Assembly: GCF_037042905.1 (NCBI RefSeq)
Contig: NC_087251.1
Coordinates: 28,460,001-28,524,000, forward strand
DNA: 64,000 nucleotides
Origin: Lytechinus pictus
Lineage: Eukaryota
Direction: 5' to 3'
Below are positions 48,601 to 64,000 of the stretch, in pieces (position 1 is the first letter of the stretch; each line of letters starts with the position of its first letter). The position numbers and the translations under genes are program-made. The notes under the pieces were generated by a model. It was not told the origin of the DNA, did not search any database, and saw nothing but the letters and a program-made list of their open reading frames with translations.

Positions 48601-50808
48601 ATTGGCTTTCATCTACTTGGTAAAAATCTATTTCCCAGACTTGGGGCATTTCATCAACATTTGGTGTTTGACTAGTAGTCAGACCTGACAACGTTCCCGA
48701 TTTTGATTGGCTTAGAAGCACAGGTGTCAACCTGTAACTATGGTTACTGTCGGATAAAACATACCTTGTTAGATAAAACATCTGACAAGAGCTGTCATGA
48801 AACACTCCCATTATCACCTTTCCTACCCTAACCTACTCAGTTCCCCATTACATAATCTGATAACTTTGCCAAGGTGATTTAATGGAATCCCTGTTTTTGA
48901 AGGCTGCTTTTATGTTACCACAGTTACTAAGTTATGATCATAGTAATATTATAGGCCTATACAATATTGCTCTATTTCATTATCAGTAGAACTCAATGCT
49001 GATGGTCCAACCATTACTATGACTAATTCGCACGAGCTTCCAGATTCCCCAAAATCTTATGACTGTGGTAAAAATGTCTGTAAAGCACTTTCAGGTGTTG
49101 TCCTTATGTAATAAGGTATATGTAAATGTGGAATTATCATCCATGTCATAAACTGGAGTTTGAATGCAGAATGTTGTTATGTTTTCATTGTAGAATCTGA
49201 TAAGCGAATGCAGTGATTTAGATGAGAATGTGAGCATGGTTGAAGAAAAAGCCACAAGGTTGAAGATTCCCCAGGACACAGTCCGAGAAACAATAGATGA
49301 TCTCAGGAATAGAGTGGATAAGATCAAGACTGATGCAAGTGCGCTTCTCAAGAAGTTACAGGTAGGAAGCCAAGACTCAATTTCATCCTACTCAAGTTTC
49401 ATCTGTTTTCTTCCTGAATAATGTGTAGCAAGGTTATATGCAATCACTCTCTGTTATATGTAGATGTTGTAGTAGTAGACTTTTGGGTCTAACTTCTTTA
49501 GCTTGGGGCTAGTCTGCCACAAAATCAGAAATCCAAGTAGATTTCTATGATGCTGAAGTAAATTTTTTTTTCTGAATATAATCATGTTCGAATTTTAGAT
49601 TATGATTATTTTGTTAGTCTTTTTCTTCCCTACAGCATTTATTTTTTTTGCAAACATCAATGTAGTTGAGGATTATTCTGATAAGAATAATTAACTCCTA
49701 TTTTCCTATTTTAAACATTATGTTTTCTAAGTTTGTTACTTTTCATTTACATTTGTTTTGTAGAAAGAGAAAGAAGATGAAATGCTTGTGAAGGTTAAAC
49801 TGGAGGTAAATCAGCAAGAATTGCAACATCTTGATGATTGGTTGACTGACTTCAACAAACAGCTTGAACCAGATGAAGAGTTAGAGAGTGGTGATGAGGA
49901 ATTAAGTGCTTCGGACATTCAGGAAAAACTCCTTCAAAATCATGTAAGAAATCTCTTAAGGTTTTTAAGTTTCTTGTCATTTTATCATCAGTTTGGAGTA
50001 TTCCACTTTTTTTTTCCATGGAACTCATTTTTCCAGGAAGGTCTTTTAAGCCTTTTCAATTTGGACATGTACTATACAATCCCTTATCATGATATTATAT
50101 ACTCTAACCACATTTTTCCTTGGGACCCAGTGAAAATCTTAGGTCATTTGGAATCCTGATTTATTAAGAAAAAAATAAATGGAATCATCAATCTGAACTG
50201 AGCCCTGTCTCACAAAGAACTGTGATAGATTCAATTCAGTCGTAAACTGAGATGATGGAAATTGTGTAGGGTAAGAGTTTTATATCAATTGCAATTAAGG
50301 TTTATTTATCACAAGACCATGTAAAACAGGGACCTGGAATTTTAAGCAGTTTCCTTTTGATTGACATTACGTAGCATAGAACCATTTCTCCACATCCTGT
50401 CTGGTTATCACTGACAGTTTCCTCTTTCTTCACATCCAGAATCACCAGTTGGAGTTGAGTCGCAAGCTCCAGAAACTGAACAACATTGAAGAGAGCATTG
50501 AGCAGACCCTGGATGCAGCCACCTGTCAGATACCGGTCCTGGCAGAGCACCTTGACACCACCGTACGGCACCTTCACAACCGCATGGATACCTGTAAGAG
50601 AAACCTGGCAGACCAGAGGGAACACCTTAAGATGCTGCTGAACACCGAGCGGCTGGCTCAGGAGTACCAGAGCGATGTGGCCAAGCTCCAGGATTGGCTG
50701 GAGCAGCATAGAGGCTTGATGTCAGCACCGGAGGGAGGAGTGACTAGCAAGTTGCCGCCTGTGGAAGTTGGAGCTGAGATGCTGCAGCAGCAGGCTGAAC
50801 TACAACAG
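527..50808 (+). CDS. SYNE1: Internal part of a giant spectrin-repeat protein gene, nesprin-1/MSP300-like (45 exons, 6,257 codons in window; both ends outside the window)
   Basis: Chain of AG/GT-bounded exons with matching phases encoding helical repeats of about 107-109 aa with conserved W (WL/WM) and a recurring T(S/T)xxGQxxI motif. The flanks of the giant exon resemble vertebrate nesprin-1 as I recall it. The symbol is an inferred orthology, not a search result. Confidence 0.8.
1321..1476 (+). CDS. exon 2 (CIQQDIQRH...EKDCQ)
   Basis: ttttcag / CAG|gtgagt; 156 nt, phase 0-0. Confidence 0.9.
2349..2513 (+). CDS. exon 3 (DCACKQSDM...IITFK)
   Basis: gaacag / AAG|gttctg; 165 nt, phase 0-0. Confidence 0.85.
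3598..3924 (+). CDS. exon 4 (DLQTEKAAC...LKKFK)
   Basis: gctttag / AAG|gtatca; 327 nt, one repeat long. Confidence 0.9.
4446..4601 (+). CDS. exon 5 (AVHDELADQ...LLKTK)
   Basis: tttttaag / AAG|gtaaga; 156 nt. Confidence 0.9.
5162..5314 (+). CDS. exon 6 (DAVKVSEHM...STQLK)
   Basis: ctaaag / AAG|gtaaat; 153 nt. Confidence 0.85.
5599..5781 (+). CDS. exon 7 (ELQKCESIG...LQDFQ)
   Basis: ttttacag / CAG|gtatga; 183 nt. Confidence 0.9.
6331..6471 (+). CDS. exon 8 (ACLALWDQA...VDHCK)
   Basis: atacag / AAG|gtgaga; 141 nt. Confidence 0.9.
7115..7267 (+). CDS. exon 9 (RIEGTVNEK...QQRCQ)
   Basis: aatcag / CAG|gtgaga; 153 nt. Confidence 0.85.
7882..8200 (+). CDS. exon 10 (DNVILAETR...SALND)
   Basis: tttttcag / ATG|gtgaga; 319 nt, phase 0-1. 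Confidence 0.9.
8564..8736 (+). CDS. exon 11 (DVKGVQTLL...MENDK)
   Basis: cttttag / AAG|gtaaat; 173 nt, phase 1-0. Confidence 0.9.
8753..9230. mobile_element. Non-autonomous TIR DNA transposon (PIF/Harbinger-like MITE), short copy
   Basis: 22-bp TIRs aggtggtttcaaaccgcctcga and tcgaggcggtctgaaaccacct (1 mismatch); same family as 23102-23946 in the opposite orientation. Confidence 0.85.
9646..9801 (+). CDS. exon 12 (KFLAEVRSK...LQNAQ)
   Basis: ctacag / CAG|gtcagt; 156 nt. Confidence 0.9.
10193..10357 (+). CDS. exon 13 (DVVKRSEED...LDALK)
   Basis: atatag / AAG|gtaggt; 165 nt. Confidence 0.9.
10769..11095 (+). CDS. exon 14 (PVLDSMNDV...LEKRK)
   Basis: ccttcag / AAG|gtttgt; 327 nt. Confidence 0.9.
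11749..11904 (+). CDS. exon 15 (ALEREIIAH...LKKAQ), absent from the ORF track
   Basis: atacag / CAG|gtaagg; 156 nt, open frame, helical content. Confidence 0.9.
12808..12981 (+). CDS. exon 16 (TTCSELASN...LAKQQ)
   Basis: ccttgcag / CAG|gttagc; 174 nt. Confidence 0.9.
14506..14805. mobile_element. MITE; degenerate relative at about 11980-12275
   Basis: 20-bp TIR tattctgaagtggggtttaa and ttaaacccgacttcagaata (1 mismatch); both copies share ccatggtct...ctaaaattatg and aaaccagagtt. Confidence 0.7.
15002..15158. mobile_element. Short MITE family (gggcc.gtttcat...atgaaac.g.cc); close relative at 36678-36860, looser relatives at about 48640-48810 and 61385-61507
   Basis: Inverted termini; tatggtaactttg shared between the 15002 and 36678 copies. 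Confidence 0.6.
15422..15775 (+). CDS. exon 17 (SLMRELATC...VEVLK)
   Basis: Weak acceptor catcag with a ctgactaat branch-like motif; AAG|gtgatt; 354 nt. Confidence 0.8.
17137..17274 (+). CDS. exon 18 (GILDTSLMH...QIIEQ)
   Basis: atgtag / CAG|gtaatt; 138 nt. Confidence 0.8.
17688..17864 (+). CDS. exon 19 (TESQLGQTE...LKNAN)
   Basis: accttag / AAT|gtaagt; 177 nt. Confidence 0.9.
18264..18449. mobile_element. Small TIR element (hAT-like ends) inserted in an older degenerate repeat
   Basis: Perfect 12-bp TIR caggggtgtgag / ctcacacccctg; flanks atagaa / atagat; internal tttcag repeats. Confidence 0.65.
18659..18955 (+). CDS. exon 20 (SFIDDIQTH...IETLE)
   Basis: cactag / GAG|gtgagt; 297 nt. Confidence 0.9.
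20601..20877 (+). repeat. 78-bp direct duplication (20601-20678 and 20800-20877)
   Basis: Copies identical except for one c/t difference. Confidence 0.9.
21350..22375 (+). CDS. Candidate alternative first coding exon: N-myristoylation motif MGSEQS followed by about 8 short internal repeats (342 aa)
   Basis: Over 1 kb of open frame inside an AT-rich intron; gctATGg context; ends at AGG|gttagt in phase 0, matching exon 21; repeat consensus NPGN..YTVKP.VD.HGRPSR.S. Confidence 0.7.
23102..23946. mobile_element. Longer copy of the same TIR element with a Myb/SANT-like (trihelix) coding remnant
   Basis: Same TIRs and subterminal sequence; internal MTSLWSEEATKALISMWRE at 23574-23630. Confidence 0.85.
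24378..24490 (+). CDS. exon 21 (RLSMPERRR...IRKQL)
   Basis: (CT)n tract then cctacag; ACA|gtgagt; 113 nt, phase 0-2. Confidence 0.9.
24557..24683 (+). mobile_element. SINE/L2-like 3' tail remnant
   Basis: gtaaagcactt...taagcactatag followed by a (TAT/CAT)n tail; similar tails near 2135-2230, 11480-11530 and 28110-28160. Confidence 0.4.
24995..25202 (+). CDS. exon 22 (HEIREEWLS...LQQIQ)
   Basis: ccacag / CAG|gtacat; 208 nt, phase 2-0. Confidence 0.9.
25591..25791 (+). CDS. exon 23 (DSSVELAGR...VNERK)
   Basis: aacgcag / AAG|gtaaga; 201 nt. Confidence 0.9.
25830..26250 (-). mobile_element. Degenerate SINE-like remnants; similar pieces at about 780-970 and 61930-62060
   Basis: Motifs such as tacccatttacc, tcttgctgaagga and ccaaaggacac resemble reverse-oriented tRNA-derived SINE cores; recognised from memory only. 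Confidence 0.4.
26290..26412 (+). CDS. exon 24 (EFWKYYSDC...VFEAK)
   Basis: gtgcag / AAG|gtaaga; 123 nt. Confidence 0.9.
27005..27125 (+). CDS. exon 25 (ALQDQVKSY...QQKVR)
   Basis: tttatag / GAG|gtaaga; 121 nt, phase 0-1. Confidence 0.9.
27665..27870 (+). CDS. exon 26 (DLEKTFQKA...ISQHK)
   Basis: cctcag / AAG|gtaata; 206 nt, phase 1-0. Confidence 0.9.
28323..28465 (+). CDS. exon 27 (NVNDSSVSQ...QALFN)
   Basis: ttccag / TAG|gtaaga; 143 nt, phase 0-2. Confidence 0.9.
28749..28935 (+). CDS. exon 28 (RTVDSTGEK...ISTCK)
   Basis: aaacag / AAG|gtaagc; 187 nt, phase 2-0. Confidence 0.9.
30030..30335 (+). CDS. exon 29 (DLQARLDNL...LHKCK)
   Basis: cttacag / AAG|gtattt; 306 nt. Confidence 0.9.
30795..31121 (+). 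CDS. exon 30 (IALEEIICL...FTRHQ)
   Basis: caccag / CAG|gtaaaa; 327 nt. Confidence 0.9.
31669..31992 (+). CDS. exon 31 (TNQPKMNHT...LHQHR)
   Basis: atacag / AGG|gtatgt; 324 nt. Confidence 0.88.
32445..32765 (+). CDS. exon 32 (QFFSREPVY...KQLNK)
   Basis: cttaaag / AAA|gtaaga; 321 nt. Confidence 0.88.
33141..33467 (+). CDS. exon 33 (EIENILQSQ...LASVK)
   Basis: ttttttag / AAG|gtatgt; 327 nt. Confidence 0.9.
33631..33779 (+). CDS. exon 34 (AAKEILDNA...LDRYH)
   Basis: cattcag / CAG|gtaaac; 149 nt, phase 0-2. Confidence 0.9.
34410..34596 (+). CDS. exon 35 (RLHDSATQL...IMTLE)
   Basis: ttgtcag / GAA|gtaaga; 187 nt, phase 2-0. Confidence 0.9.
34978..35286 (+). CDS. exon 36 (VVKSELQPK...KKEHE)
   Basis: acttcag / GAG|gtaatt; 309 nt. 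Confidence 0.9.
35666..35992 (+). CDS. exon 37 (DLKESLKSA...LQEHR)
   Basis: tgacag / AGG|gtcagt; 327 nt. Confidence 0.9.
36347..36655 (+). CDS. exon 38 (ALLEDVPYT...LENQK)
   Basis: acttag / AAG|gtattg; 309 nt. Confidence 0.9.
37254..37496 (+). CDS. exon 39 (EVLEKLESA...SLVQQ) with an acidic DGDEDEDDD loop; absent from the ORF track
   Basis: tgatag / CAG|gtcagt; 243 nt, open frame. Confidence 0.88.
37982..38104 (+). CDS. exon 40 (EAYEKQLEV...IAQHK); absent from the ORF track
   Basis: ccttttgcag / AAG|gtacat; 123 nt. Confidence 0.9.
38480..47794 (+). CDS. exon 41: giant 9,315-nt exon (3,105 aa) with spectrin helices at both ends and 13 copies of an unrecognised ~110-aa repeat between acidic S/P/D-rich linkers
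   Basis: tttgtttcag acceptor, AAG|gtaaat donor, phase 0-0; uninterrupted 3,116-codon ORF in the track. Confidence 0.92.
48417..48587 (+). CDS. exon 42 (MEEKERLLK...ILELK)
   Basis: atatag / AAG|gttggc; 171 nt. Confidence 0.9.
49194..49361 (+). CDS. exon 43 (NLISECSDL...LKKLQ)
   Basis: ttgtag / CAG|gtagga; 168 nt. Confidence 0.9.
49764..49943 (+). CDS. exon 44 (KEKEDEMLV...LLQNH)
   Basis: tttgtag / CAT|gtaaga; 180 nt. Confidence 0.9.
50440..50808 (+). CDS. exon 45 (NHQLELSRK...AELQQ), followed by an intron of over 13 kb running off the window
   Basis: catccag / CAG|gtgagt; 369 nt, phase 0-0. Confidence 0.9.
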
Positions 50809-50946
50809 GTGAGTCAGATTGTATTTCACCAACTGTTATTGTGGTATATTAATAAATGTTTTATCCACATCTTCCCAGTAAGCAGGATTTTGATGTGATA
50901 TTGCTTGGTGGAGGACCTGCTAAAACCTGTGGCTAAGAGTACTTAA

Positions 50947-56043: not shown

Positions 56044-56556
56044 GTGCCGATTAAGAATAATCAGCGCCACCTTAATCTAAATCGGCGCCGGGCAAGAATA
56101 ATCAGCACTGCCAGAGTCTTAACCGGCGCCAATCAAGGATAATCAGCGCCACCTAAATCTAAATCGGCGCTATCTGGTTATAAATCGGCGCCGGTAAAGA
56201 AAAATCGACGCTGCCTGAGTTCTTACCCGGCGCCGATCAAGGATAATCGGCGCCAGTCAAGAATAATAGGCGCCTCCTGGTTCTAAATCGGCGCCAGTCG
56301 ATTATGAATTGCCGCTGCCTGAATTTTACGTGACATCTGTAAAAATAATCAGCACTACTTGTTTAAATCGGCGCCGGTCAAGACAAATCGGCGCTGCCTT
56401 TGTCTTAACCGGCGCCACCTAAATTTAAATCGGCGCCGGTCAAGAATGATCAGCGTCCCCTGGTTCCAATAAATAGGCGCCGGTAGAATAATGAAGAAGG
56501 GCCTATATTGCCAACCAAATCTTGATCGGCGCCGGTCAAGAATGATCAGCGGCACC
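56044..56556. repeat. Degenerate minisatellite built on aaatcggcgcc.gtcaagaataatcagcgcc
   Basis: More than ten ggcgcc-centred units visible. Confidence 0.85.
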
Positions 56557-57368
56557 TAGCTGGTTATACATTTGATTGTTGAATGGTCATAACGAATAAC
56601 AAAGCTTATCGCATGCCCTTACAGAGTGGACTGGGACAGTTGCCCCCAGATGTCATGAAATCTTTAATTTGTTGTTTTAAGAAATCCCAGAATCATACAA
56701 AAGTGTAGAGCAAATCCTTTAATTTTGATCTTATTTTCCAATGCTTAAGTAAAAAAAAGGTCAGTCACTTTTCTTCTTTACACATTCCACATTGTACCAC
56801 CTCTATGGCCTTTAGTGTAAGACAGCTACTCTAGTGTTTTATGAAGATGATTTGATATTTTAGTCTAAAACGTTGCTTATACCGGGAGTGTATAATTACG
56901 CAACCATGCAGACATATATTCGTTAGACCTTAAACCACTAAATATCATTTTCAATGTATTAATACAGTTTGTCAATACCTTTGTTTTAACGTTTAAATGT
57001 TTACGCCACAAAATTTGATTTATTTTCATCTTCCATTAAGTTAAATATTATTCATCTGATCACTCAGGAAGAAGTTTAAAACAAAGATAACGATACCTAT
57101 AAAACTGGAGAACTTTTTCCAAAGCTCTGTCTTGAAAGATCTCTTTCTGAATTCAGCTCATAAGCATTATATCCAGTTTCATCAAAGTAATTAGATAAAA
57201 ATTACTCATCATTACAAATTGCATTAGATTTAGTGAAAACCATCACAATATATAATTCTGTATATAGGCCTAAACATCATGTACATGAAAATTGAATGAT
57301 GATATATAAACCTGGATTGGTGATGTATTACAAATGATTCATCATGACTTGTAGTATCATTGTATATG

Positions 57369-61000: not shown

Positions 61001-63451
61001 AAACTAAAATCTTCATTGCCTTGACATTAAACTGAAGTATAAATGAATTGCCCCTTATCATGCTGCTAGCTGTATGACACGTACAATTTATAGGTGGTTA
61101 TTCACCGTTGAACTGTGCAAACAATATAAATGACAGCGACAGTTAATGGAATATGGACTTTTGTCTCTTCTTCTTCGTGTCATTATTTGAAATATATGTA
61201 TTCAAGAGGAACATGCCTTTTCTATGTGGAAGAATAGGTCTGATTAAGTTCAGTAGTTTTATTGCCTAGCACTGCAAAGCATGATTTATAAACCAATAAC
61301 ATAATAGATTGGCAAATATAGTTGATAGTATATTCCCTGCTACTGTTTTCTTTTTTCATGTGATTACTGATGGACTATATTCATGGGACTGTTTCAGGAA
61401 AGAAATAGTCATTTATTTTCACTGGTGTATTCGTTCTGAGCCAATCAGGTGCAAGGATTTCAGTAGCTTATAACTAAAAATCTCTATTTGTTTCATGAAA
61501 TGCTCCGCTGAAGTCTTAATCAATTCCCATCTGCTTAAACTGGTTAAAAGCTAGATGTCAGTATTTTTAATATTTTTTTTTACATTTCATCAATCATGTT
61601 CCTTAGCTGTAGCTTATAACAGGAGCTTAAATTCTAACTTGATATTGCTAACAGGTTTTATGAAACAAGACCCTTGCAATCTGGCACACCAAATCATGTC
61701 TAGTGCTTTTATATGTCAAATTTCTATCACTTCTGAAGGCATTGTATTATAGAATTGCTAGTAGATTTGTACCATTAAAGAAATGAATGAATGTATGTAT
61801 GCAGTGTATGTTAAGGTTGTATGAATGAATGATTTGAATAAATTTACCATTTGGTTTAAAATAAATTGGACAGTCCATCTTATAGGGAATATCATAAATA
61901 GGTGATATGAAATATCCATCCTTTCAAAGACCGGGCCCTATCCATTTACAGAACTATCCCAGGTGGACATCTACCTTACCTGGGTGTAGTGTGGCAGATG
62001 TGTAGAGTCATGCTTTGCTGAATGTGCAAAGGCTGGACTTTTGACAAGGGACCATGTGATCACAGGCTCATGATGCAGCCATCAGACCATGACACTTATT
62101 TCATTCATCCAGTTAGGCAGCTTGATTCCTTTGGCATTGAGAGAAACAAAGGAAAGTGGACATGCTTTTCAGACTATGGCTATTATGTCTCATTCAACCA
62201 TGTAAAAGTGTTGAAAGGAACCCCCTTTGAAAAAAAAATTCATGGAAAGAGAATGAAAGATTCAAATAAAGAGATTAAAACAGAGATCACCCTTCAGTAT
62301 GCTCACACAAGCTCAGATGTAAACACAAGACAAACACACAGTCACATACACACAACGCACCAATCATCATTCATTCATTCATTCATTGAGTGCAGGTGTG
62401 GATGTGAGGTCGATGTCTTCCTGTGCATGCAGTGCAGCGCTGCACGATCAGCTACTACTAGTACCACGAATCATTAGTCTGCTGATACGGCTGGAGGGAG
62501 GACGTGTGCTGTTGTATTCATGATTCTTTACTCTTCATCACAACCCCTCGCAATCAAAACCACCTGCACTCTGCATCACGTGTACTACGGAATCTACAAA
62601 TCAAACAAAATATGACTTTTCATCAGTGCGCATGAGATTACATGAAATAGTGGCCCTTTGTGTTGACTAGGAGATGGATGTAGCGTAATGATGGAAGCTT
62701 TGAGCCTTGGATGATGTAAGTATCACAGCTTTCTCGCAGCAGGATTTGTGGTTAGAGCATATATAAGAGCTGTCTATGAAGGGATAAAACTTGCGGTGTC
62801 AAATGAATCCTTTTGCATTCAAGGAATTCAAGGAGAGCCGGCCATTGCAGCTACATTATTGTTCTTTCAAGTCTCCCATTTCTATATTGATAATGGGCAA
62901 TTATGTTTGACGGATATTACATGTCGTTGCTGCATGTAAATCTGTACATCATTTAAAACGGACTCTTCAATCTTCCCTCTTGAAGCTGTGTAGTCAAATG
63001 TGTGAGGAATAACTGATCAACCGATCAACCACTTGGATTTCTTATCTTGGAATAATTGCATCTATGGCTGTAATTTGATGTTGTCTTCATTAGAATTTTC
63101 AAACCCTGGAAATCTTGGAAGTTAATAGAGAAATTGTATATTGATTCTCAAAATGTATCATCCTTCGTGTACCTCAACACATTCATCAATTTTGCTCTGT
63201 AATCCCTAACATCCGCACACCACTCGCGTGTCTGGCGCTATCAGACCCTCCAGAGCTGAGCAGAGGTGGCTTGGAAGCAACAATTAGCTAGTGTCCTATC
63301 TTCCTTTCTTTGCTCTGAAAACACACTTCCTAACTTAAAGAAAATAGACTCTGAAGAAAAGGATAATTCTATAAGAGAGGTGATGACCTGACACTGACCT
63401 GAGGCTTACCCCTGACCGTTAAGACCCTACCCAAAATCTGGATGCGTAATC

Positions 63452-63505
63452 ATGCTCTCGTCCCCGATCACCCCGAAGCGTCGGACTCTGGTTCCGCTTG
63501 GAAAT
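63452..63505 (+). CDS. Candidate alternative first coding exon MLSSPITPKRRTLVPLGN (CDK sites plus D-box)
   Basis: aatcATG context; locally GC/CpG-rich; AAT|gtaagt consensus donor in phase 0, the same phase as the intron it lies in. Confidence 0.5.
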
Positions 63506-64000
63506 GTAAGTTGATCCCTATAGCCAATCCTTGACCAAGATTCTCTCCTTGTTTGATTTCAATGAGCGATGATATTGTGCTAATTTTAGTCTCATTTGAC
63601 CTTCTTTTTGGTAATCTTTTTCAAATAGTGCAATTCCTGTTTTGAACTTGAGTAACAACAGAATTTCATTATTTCCATTTTGGATACATTACTTTACAGT
63701 AAGTTCTGAATAGTCTTCAGATTTTTTAAAGCTTACCTATTTGTCTTTCTTCATCAGCTCTCTTTTTTTTGTCCCATGAAATTGTCTCCCAAAACAATTA
63801 TTACAAATTTTAGTTAACCACTGAAAGTAATCCATTTCCGTTCTTCATAAAAACAGGAGCTTTTGCATTTCTTGAAAAAATATACAATCACTACCATACA
63901 ACAGAAATGATTTGACATTACAAATTTGATAGTTTTTTTAGATTTTTTTAACATTATAATTAATACTGTGAGGTATAACTGTAAAACAAGTGTTAATGAT

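Follow-up and report, generated by a model that had tools for sequence, protein, structure and literature searches.

Does a giant nesprin gene of the urchin carry, deep inside its rod, a separate first exon for a shorter nuclear-envelope anchor, and could the few residues encoded by this exon serve as a cell-cycle degron? The window analysed here, a stretch of 64,000 nucleotides (G000:C7:28460001-28524000), contains a nesprin-1-like rod on the plus strand, and the part of the gene within it includes a giant exon of 3,128 codons (~3,100 aa). The gene is nesprin-1-like in having CH domains 5' and KASH 3' of the alternative start: a CH-domain exon lies 40 kb 5' of the window on the same strand as the rod, and the last exon of the gene, the KASH exon (PF10541, E=3.7e-29), lies ~75 kb 3' of the window end. 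Amphioxus and bat nesprin-1 were the nearest named relatives retrieved. The rod repeats are spectrin-like, and a PDB search confirmed nothing beyond that; leads from the ESM Atlas for this region were a mixture of RavA and spectrin and were set aside. Published work is cited by PMC number.

A probable first exon transcribed within the largest intron

The final upstream rod exon within the window gives weak matches to Spectrin and Spectrin_SYNE1, aligns to bat nesprin-1 residues 949-1060, and carries helix 1 of the spectrin repeat that a shorter isoform would enter half-way. The intron that separates it from the next rod exon measures 25.7 kb, and no other intron in the modelled portion of the gene comes near this length. 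The initial annotation placed in this intron a micro first exon consisting of an ATG in the context aatcATG, 18 codons (MLSSPITPKRRTLVPLGN) and a gtaagt donor in phase 0. The start, the codons and the donor are all seen in the sequence; the size is another matter, as stranded RNA depth gives an exon of ~1.1 kb, 95% of which is leader and only the last 54 nt coding (Table 1).

Table 1. Features of the alternative start (positions in the window unless a locus is named)
Feature	Position	Strand	Comment
Final upstream rod exon within window	50440..50808	+	Phase-0 donor
(TCAT)n simple repeat	62358..62397	.	At 5' edge of read coverage; passed over as repeat during read placement
Alternative first exon, ~1.1 kb	62396..63505	+	Stranded RNA depth in 3/3 raw runs; 5' end approximate
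Leader (5' UTR)	62396..63451	+	25 upstream ATGs, 9 with purine at -3
Out-of-frame uORF, 21 codons	63442..63505	+	Weak context; overlaps main start; stop formed across splice
Coding part, 18-residue isoform-specific N-terminal tip	63452..63505	+	Stop-free in frame through first six modelled downstream exons
S4-P5, minimal CDK site	63461-63466	+	Pattern match
T7-P-K-R, full CDK consensus	63470..63481	+	Pattern match
R10..N18, D-box-like RxxLxxLxN	63479..63505	+	Pattern match
Splice donor gtaagt	63506..63511	+	Phase 0; joined to exon L003:4503-4733
Acceptor exon	L003:4503-4733 (G000:C7:28536503-28536733)	+	Phase-0 acceptor; beyond window, 13 kb past its end

Transcription of the exon from within the intron was observed in three raw RNA runs (X19, X20, X21), all from one study, sampled at ~6% each and labelled as the same species as the best DNA match. 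In all three, the reads, which lie on the plus strand if the library follows the usual convention, give unbroken stranded depth from ~62400 to 63505, at 7-35 once past the 5' taper; depth is zero on either side, at 62000-62334 and at 63541-64000. The spliced reads from 63505 that the annotation called for were looked for and found, the loose ends at this position matching the first 30 nt of the acceptor exon in 21 of 144 reads (X19), 22 of 164 (X20), and 10 of 130 (X21). The same joint is present in contigs X5, X10, and X11 of a second organism (organism B); these three, from three studies, are all that were examined of ten listed. The next exon is, as expected, compatible with phase 0, and both junction reads and a frame that stays open across six modelled exons place the splice in frame into the spectrin rod. 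Transcription, strand, junction, and phase have thus been observed in two organisms. We are highly confident that the exon with the ATG at 63452 is a real alternative first exon.

At the 5' end, depth falls over ~170 nt, from ~20 at 62570 to ~0 at 62400, and no loose ends are listed there; this fits a transcription start at the first exon. The exon is likely started by its own internal promoter, with the start site near 62400. Reads may be clipped by the (TCAT)n repeat at this edge, and the AG at 62394-62395 might serve as an acceptor, so that splicing from further upstream keeps a small probability. A sigma-70 promoter scan was discarded, since such a model is unsuited to an animal gene. The stretches 62400-63300 and 63300-63700 each match one place in the genome. 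A transposon origin was rejected on this uniqueness of both halves, though the search ignores common words.

Several other features of the intron were recorded. A scan of its full length (50809 to L003:4502) gave no strong phase-0 exon candidates and no tblastn match better than E=7. In bat and amphioxus nesprin-1, ~85-105 residues (a Ser/Pro-rich loop in amphioxus) separate the positions of the exons on either side of this intron; they are missing from the urchin model, and the scan gave no exon that matches them. AATAAA hexamers occur at 50851, 51084, and 51360; the giant transcript may splice straight across, or KASH-less forms may end there. A GGCGCC-rich imperfect repeat array at 56070-56560 probably belongs to a non-autonomous mobile element.

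The predicted isoform and internal starts of other nesprins

From the acceptor exon, the KASH exon is ~62 kb further 3'. Thirty-five downstream exons, chained by hand, and the tip together amount to ~2,395 codons, some of the boundaries being approximate, and two further exons were added by tblastn with amphioxus nesprin-1; read support covers the first of the ~37 junctions of this isoform. Because the acceptor exon aligns at residue 1164 of 3699 in bat nesprin-1 and at residue 519 of 3108 in the amphioxus protein, i.e. 2,536 and 2,590 residues from their ends, the predicted product would be a CH-less KASH isoform of nesprin-1 with ~2,500-2,600 aa. The proposal of a short KASH isoform is borne out as regards a spliced, CH-less start in a gene that ends in KASH, whereas the word short is relative for a predicted protein of ~2,500 aa. 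The predicted isoform retains a LEWD-like motif (LDWD) together with KASH. Its tip would probably be exposed, since the isoform begins half-way into a spectrin repeat, and may be disordered, to judge from its three prolines and the absent first helix.

On balance we lean towards an explanation in which an internal promoter would give rise to a shorter KASH anchor that owes its function mainly to its missing parts and bears a flexible, basic, kinase-tunable cap. The 1.1-kb exon of the 25.7-kb intron is transcribed, likely from its own internal promoter, and spliced in frame onto the next spectrin exon; translation would begin at 63452 despite the upstream ATGs, and the transcript would continue as far as the KASH exon. 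The resulting nuclear-envelope anchor of ~2,500 residues would be without the actin-binding end, and its main role would follow from the omission of the CH domains, of ~70% of the rod (on the vertebrate scale), and of the 3,100-aa giant exon. The tether would be shortened, with the LEWD-like motif and KASH kept, like in vertebrate nesprin-1 beta and alpha-2. The 18-residue tip, which is likely flexible and phosphorylated by a kinase of the CDK type, would take the place of helix 1 of a spectrin repeat and serve as a basic docking patch that kinases could tune; its destruction by the APC/C would be possible, but not required.

Internal starts of this kind are already known. CH-less isoforms of human nesprin-1 arise by internal promotion (PMC3981789), and unique N-terminal tips from internal promoters have been documented for this gene (PMC3981789, PMC4924313, PMC3388047). 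Rajgor et al. list starts E83, E84, E92, E97 (unverified), I128/129, I132/133, and E138, and report ELM-predicted kinase sites in such private peptides, as predictions only (PMC3388047). Vertebrate nesprin-1 beta-1/beta-2, p346KASH (N1-5'E92), and alpha-2 all resemble the predicted urchin isoform in being CH-less and starting inside the rod. The likeness to alpha-2 extends to an own first exon, situated before exon 131 in human, and to a short private N-terminus, of 31 aa there versus 18 here (PMC4924313). In contrast to the urchin tip, the alpha-2 tip of bat (P0036/P0038) contains no basic patch, CDK site, or D-box.

The urchin start lies ~2,540 residues from the C-terminus, between the p346/beta and alpha starts. 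The nearest start tabulated for vertebrates, N1-5'E97, is EST-only and not PCR-verified (PMC3388047), so that the urchin position is without a validated counterpart in the literature examined. Among the matches listed in a search for sea urchin or echinoderm nesprin or SYNE1, no title concerns such an exon. The locus would extend to an invertebrate nesprin-1 gene the internal-start strategy known in vertebrates. In amphioxus, a cluster of eight predicted nesprin-1 isoforms (P0012; 3,020-3,112 aa) starts ~500 residues before the urchin position; it is near human p346KASH in size and may reflect either a genuine internal start or a gene model cut short.

A second candidate alternative first exon was noted further 3' (L008:2931-3097; G000:C7:28584931-28585097). 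It comprises 55 codons with a phase-2 donor, and encodes an acidic run, a full CDK site (TPVK) and a further three S/T-P sites. On its 5' side is an exon that matches the epitope of human exon 130, and the exon on its 3' side aligns from residue 32 of the alpha-2-type nesprin-1 of bat (P0038); these flanking matches place the candidate in the same intron as the first exon of vertebrate nesprin-1 alpha-2, which hints that short nesprin isoforms predate vertebrates.

Kinase and destruction-box motifs of the tip

The full CDK consensus is [ST]-P-x-[KR]. Of the CDK sites attributed to the tip, T7 fits this consensus in full, and S4-P5 is a minimal site only. The peptide RRTLVPLGN was confirmed as an exact match to RxxLxxxxN, with R1, L4, and N9 in place and an aliphatic residue (Leu) at position 7, and its RRTL also fits the Aurora-A consensus R-x-S/T-L/V at T12 (sources of the D-box and Aurora-A consensus: PMC12401543, PMC3315528, PMC3675325). 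Among 3,053 stop-free, Met-started 18-mers from 182 kb read on both strands, RxxLxxxxN alone is found in 6 and the CDK motif alone in 29; one contains both, and this is the tip itself. Both motifs occurred together in 0.16% of 200,000 composition shuffles, the range of shuffle matches for the tip motifs being 0.05-0.16%; as the motifs were picked after seeing the sequence, with no correction, the true rarity is lower than these figures. The counts suggest that the motif pair is rarer than chance would give for a merely permissive tip, a point against the explanation favored above.

Could the tip then be a working, phosphorylation-gated D-box of the APC/C? CDK1 at T7 and Aurora at T12 would time the binding of Cdc20/Cdh1, and the KASH protein would be ubiquitinated and cleared as cells leave mitosis or during G1/G0. 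We regard this as unlikely, though it has more than the motif pair in its favor. The residues described as key in PMC12401543 are present, together with the aliphatic position 7, and lysines are predicted at positions 9, 19, 32, and 40 of the isoform. The tip shares its first four D-box residues, RRTL, with geminin, in which the motif is also N-terminal and in which phosphorylation of Thr25, a site fitting R-x-S/T-L/V, by Aurora-A blocks the APC/C (PMC3675325). However, geminin is a soluble, tested APC/C substrate, whereas the urchin tip continues as V-P-L-G-N on a large membrane protein and is known by its motif. No amino-acid change was placed in the tip in the four runs compared, a comparison confined to close relatives.

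A precedent among LINC proteins is budding-yeast Mps3, which is degraded by APC/C-Cdh1 via an N-terminal KEN, a D-box, and S70 (PMC6400550); it is likewise a membrane protein with an N-terminal D-box-like motif adjoining a phosphosite (PMC6400550, PMC6682350). At that, Mps3 is an inner-membrane SUN partner with redundant KEN and D-box, whereas the urchin protein is a KASH protein with one isoform-specific D-box-like motif and no KEN. In the literature searched, mostly without subscription papers, nothing pairs a nesprin with a destruction box, and APC/C control of a LINC protein was found described for Mps3 only.

Several observations speak against a working D-box. Thr at position 3 and Pro at position 6 depart from the preferred, non-obligatory residues of binding peptides, Pro/Ala and Asp, respectively, and one consensus-like peptide in the same source gave no binding (PMC12401543). 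The human proteome contains 2,123 instances of RxxLxxxxN, and even among known substrates the precision of this pattern is 56% (PMC3315528). No KEN box is found in the 2,354 modelled residues of the isoform, and a second strict RxxLxxxxN match inside the folded rod shows that chance matches occur. The test for conservation of the tip gives p=0.09, with the adjoining 76 nt of leader equally invariant, and the protein and metagenome collections searched yielded no distant homologue of the tip. Finally, in human cells the link between SUN1 and the KASH protein nesprin-2 stays intact during mitosis (PMC4164488).

The initial annotation had joined an alternative short isoform to a mitotic degron. 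Its first half is supported by RNA reads for the first exon and the phase-0 splice, with KASH downstream, whereas the degron is a motif match. The wider proposal, that the isoform-specific exon adds a kinase-gated destruction box, so that one anchor would be destroyed on a cell-cycle clock and the giant form spared, is likewise doubtful. A working D-box would provide a direct and easily tested link from the APC/C to the turnover of an outer-membrane LINC protein; if the tip is not a D-box, this is an ordinary alternative first exon.

It is improbable, in our judgment, that the basic patch PKRR, directly after the CDK site, acts as a weak signal for import into the nucleus or for docking to an acidic partner, which phosphorylation of T7 would switch and which would send the isoform to another membrane pool, with the D-box match incidental: PKRR fails the classical import consensus K-[KR]-x-[KR], and a rod of 2,500 residues would be unlikely to reach the inner membrane, although short nesprin-2 isoforms do bind the nucleoplasmic part of SUN1 and are released in mitosis (PMC4164488).

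The leader and conservation around the start

For the shortened KASH anchor to be made, ribosomes would have to reach 63452 through a leader whose 25 upstream ATGs may suppress translation from this start. The upstream ATGs are mostly in the first half of the leader, with 19 in the first 555 nt versus 2 in the last 291 nt. An in-frame TGA is situated at 63413-63415, and no in-frame ATG occurs from there to 63452. The ATG at 63442 does not fit the main frame, as had been anticipated; it opens the 21-codon uORF that ends across the splice junction. The base at -3 is A at the main ATG and T at the uORF ATG.

It is thus conceivable, though in our estimate very doubtful, that the RNA is real and yields little or no such protein, either because the uORF-laden leader silences it or because the 1.1-kb piece belongs to the giant transcript as an internal exon with stops and leads into nonsense-mediated decay. 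The number of upstream ATGs and the overlapping uORF 10 nt before the start agree with silencing, and the possible acceptor AG adjoins the repeat where reads seem to be cut; moreover, a block of invariant sequence that includes 76 nt of leader would fit constraint at the RNA level. On the other hand, depth at the 5' end tapers rather than falling sharply, with no loose ends listed, the main ATG has the better -3 base of the two, and the upstream ATGs thin out toward the start. In addition, the sole placed coding change is silent in the main frame and non-synonymous in the uORF, and was therefore counted in favor of the main-frame isoform.

This change is the only one placed in the 54 coding nucleotides across the four runs compared, and it replaces Val with Phe in the uORF frame. 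Contigs X10 and X11 have no coding changes after reconciling (X11 with two leader sites), and one of the ten differences in X5 is unplaced. The leader at 63231-63451 has 15 variable sites and 2 indels in the four runs, the first 30 nt of the compared stretch having been left out since contig differences are hidden there. At the leader rate, ~2.6 non-synonymous changes are expected versus none placed, which is weak evidence (p=0.086, one-sided Fisher test). The leader is equally quiet in its final 76 nt, with one site (p=0.02 versus the farther leader), and the constraint may thus act on the RNA or the promoter and not on the protein. The 130-nt block 63376-63505 as a whole is near-invariant across the two organisms, whereas the leader just upstream varies at ~10% of sites; it is a possible translational or promoter element.

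Protein-level relatives of the region were few. A query with the acceptor exon retrieved three relatives (1 of 181 and 2 of 5 candidates), which read as genomic ORFs with intron-derived ends. HMMER on 1.84 billion representatives returned 12 matches, none opening with a similar tip; the search with the amphioxus region gave 5 of 2,261 candidates, none labelled echinoderm; and of two metagenome scans, one gave no matches and the other 0 of 553 confirmed. The collections searched appear to hold little echinoderm transcript-derived protein here, and these blanks appear to be collection gaps.

In 62400-63150, the RNA reads that share the species label of the best DNA match depart from the reference by indels and at many sites, fixed or nearly so; some of these differences are common to organism B, which suggests high polymorphism or a divergent population. 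Beyond the end of the nesprin gene, ~11 kb 3' of the KASH exon and on the same strand, lies what we take to be an SRF-like MADS-box gene (L010:8386 to L012).
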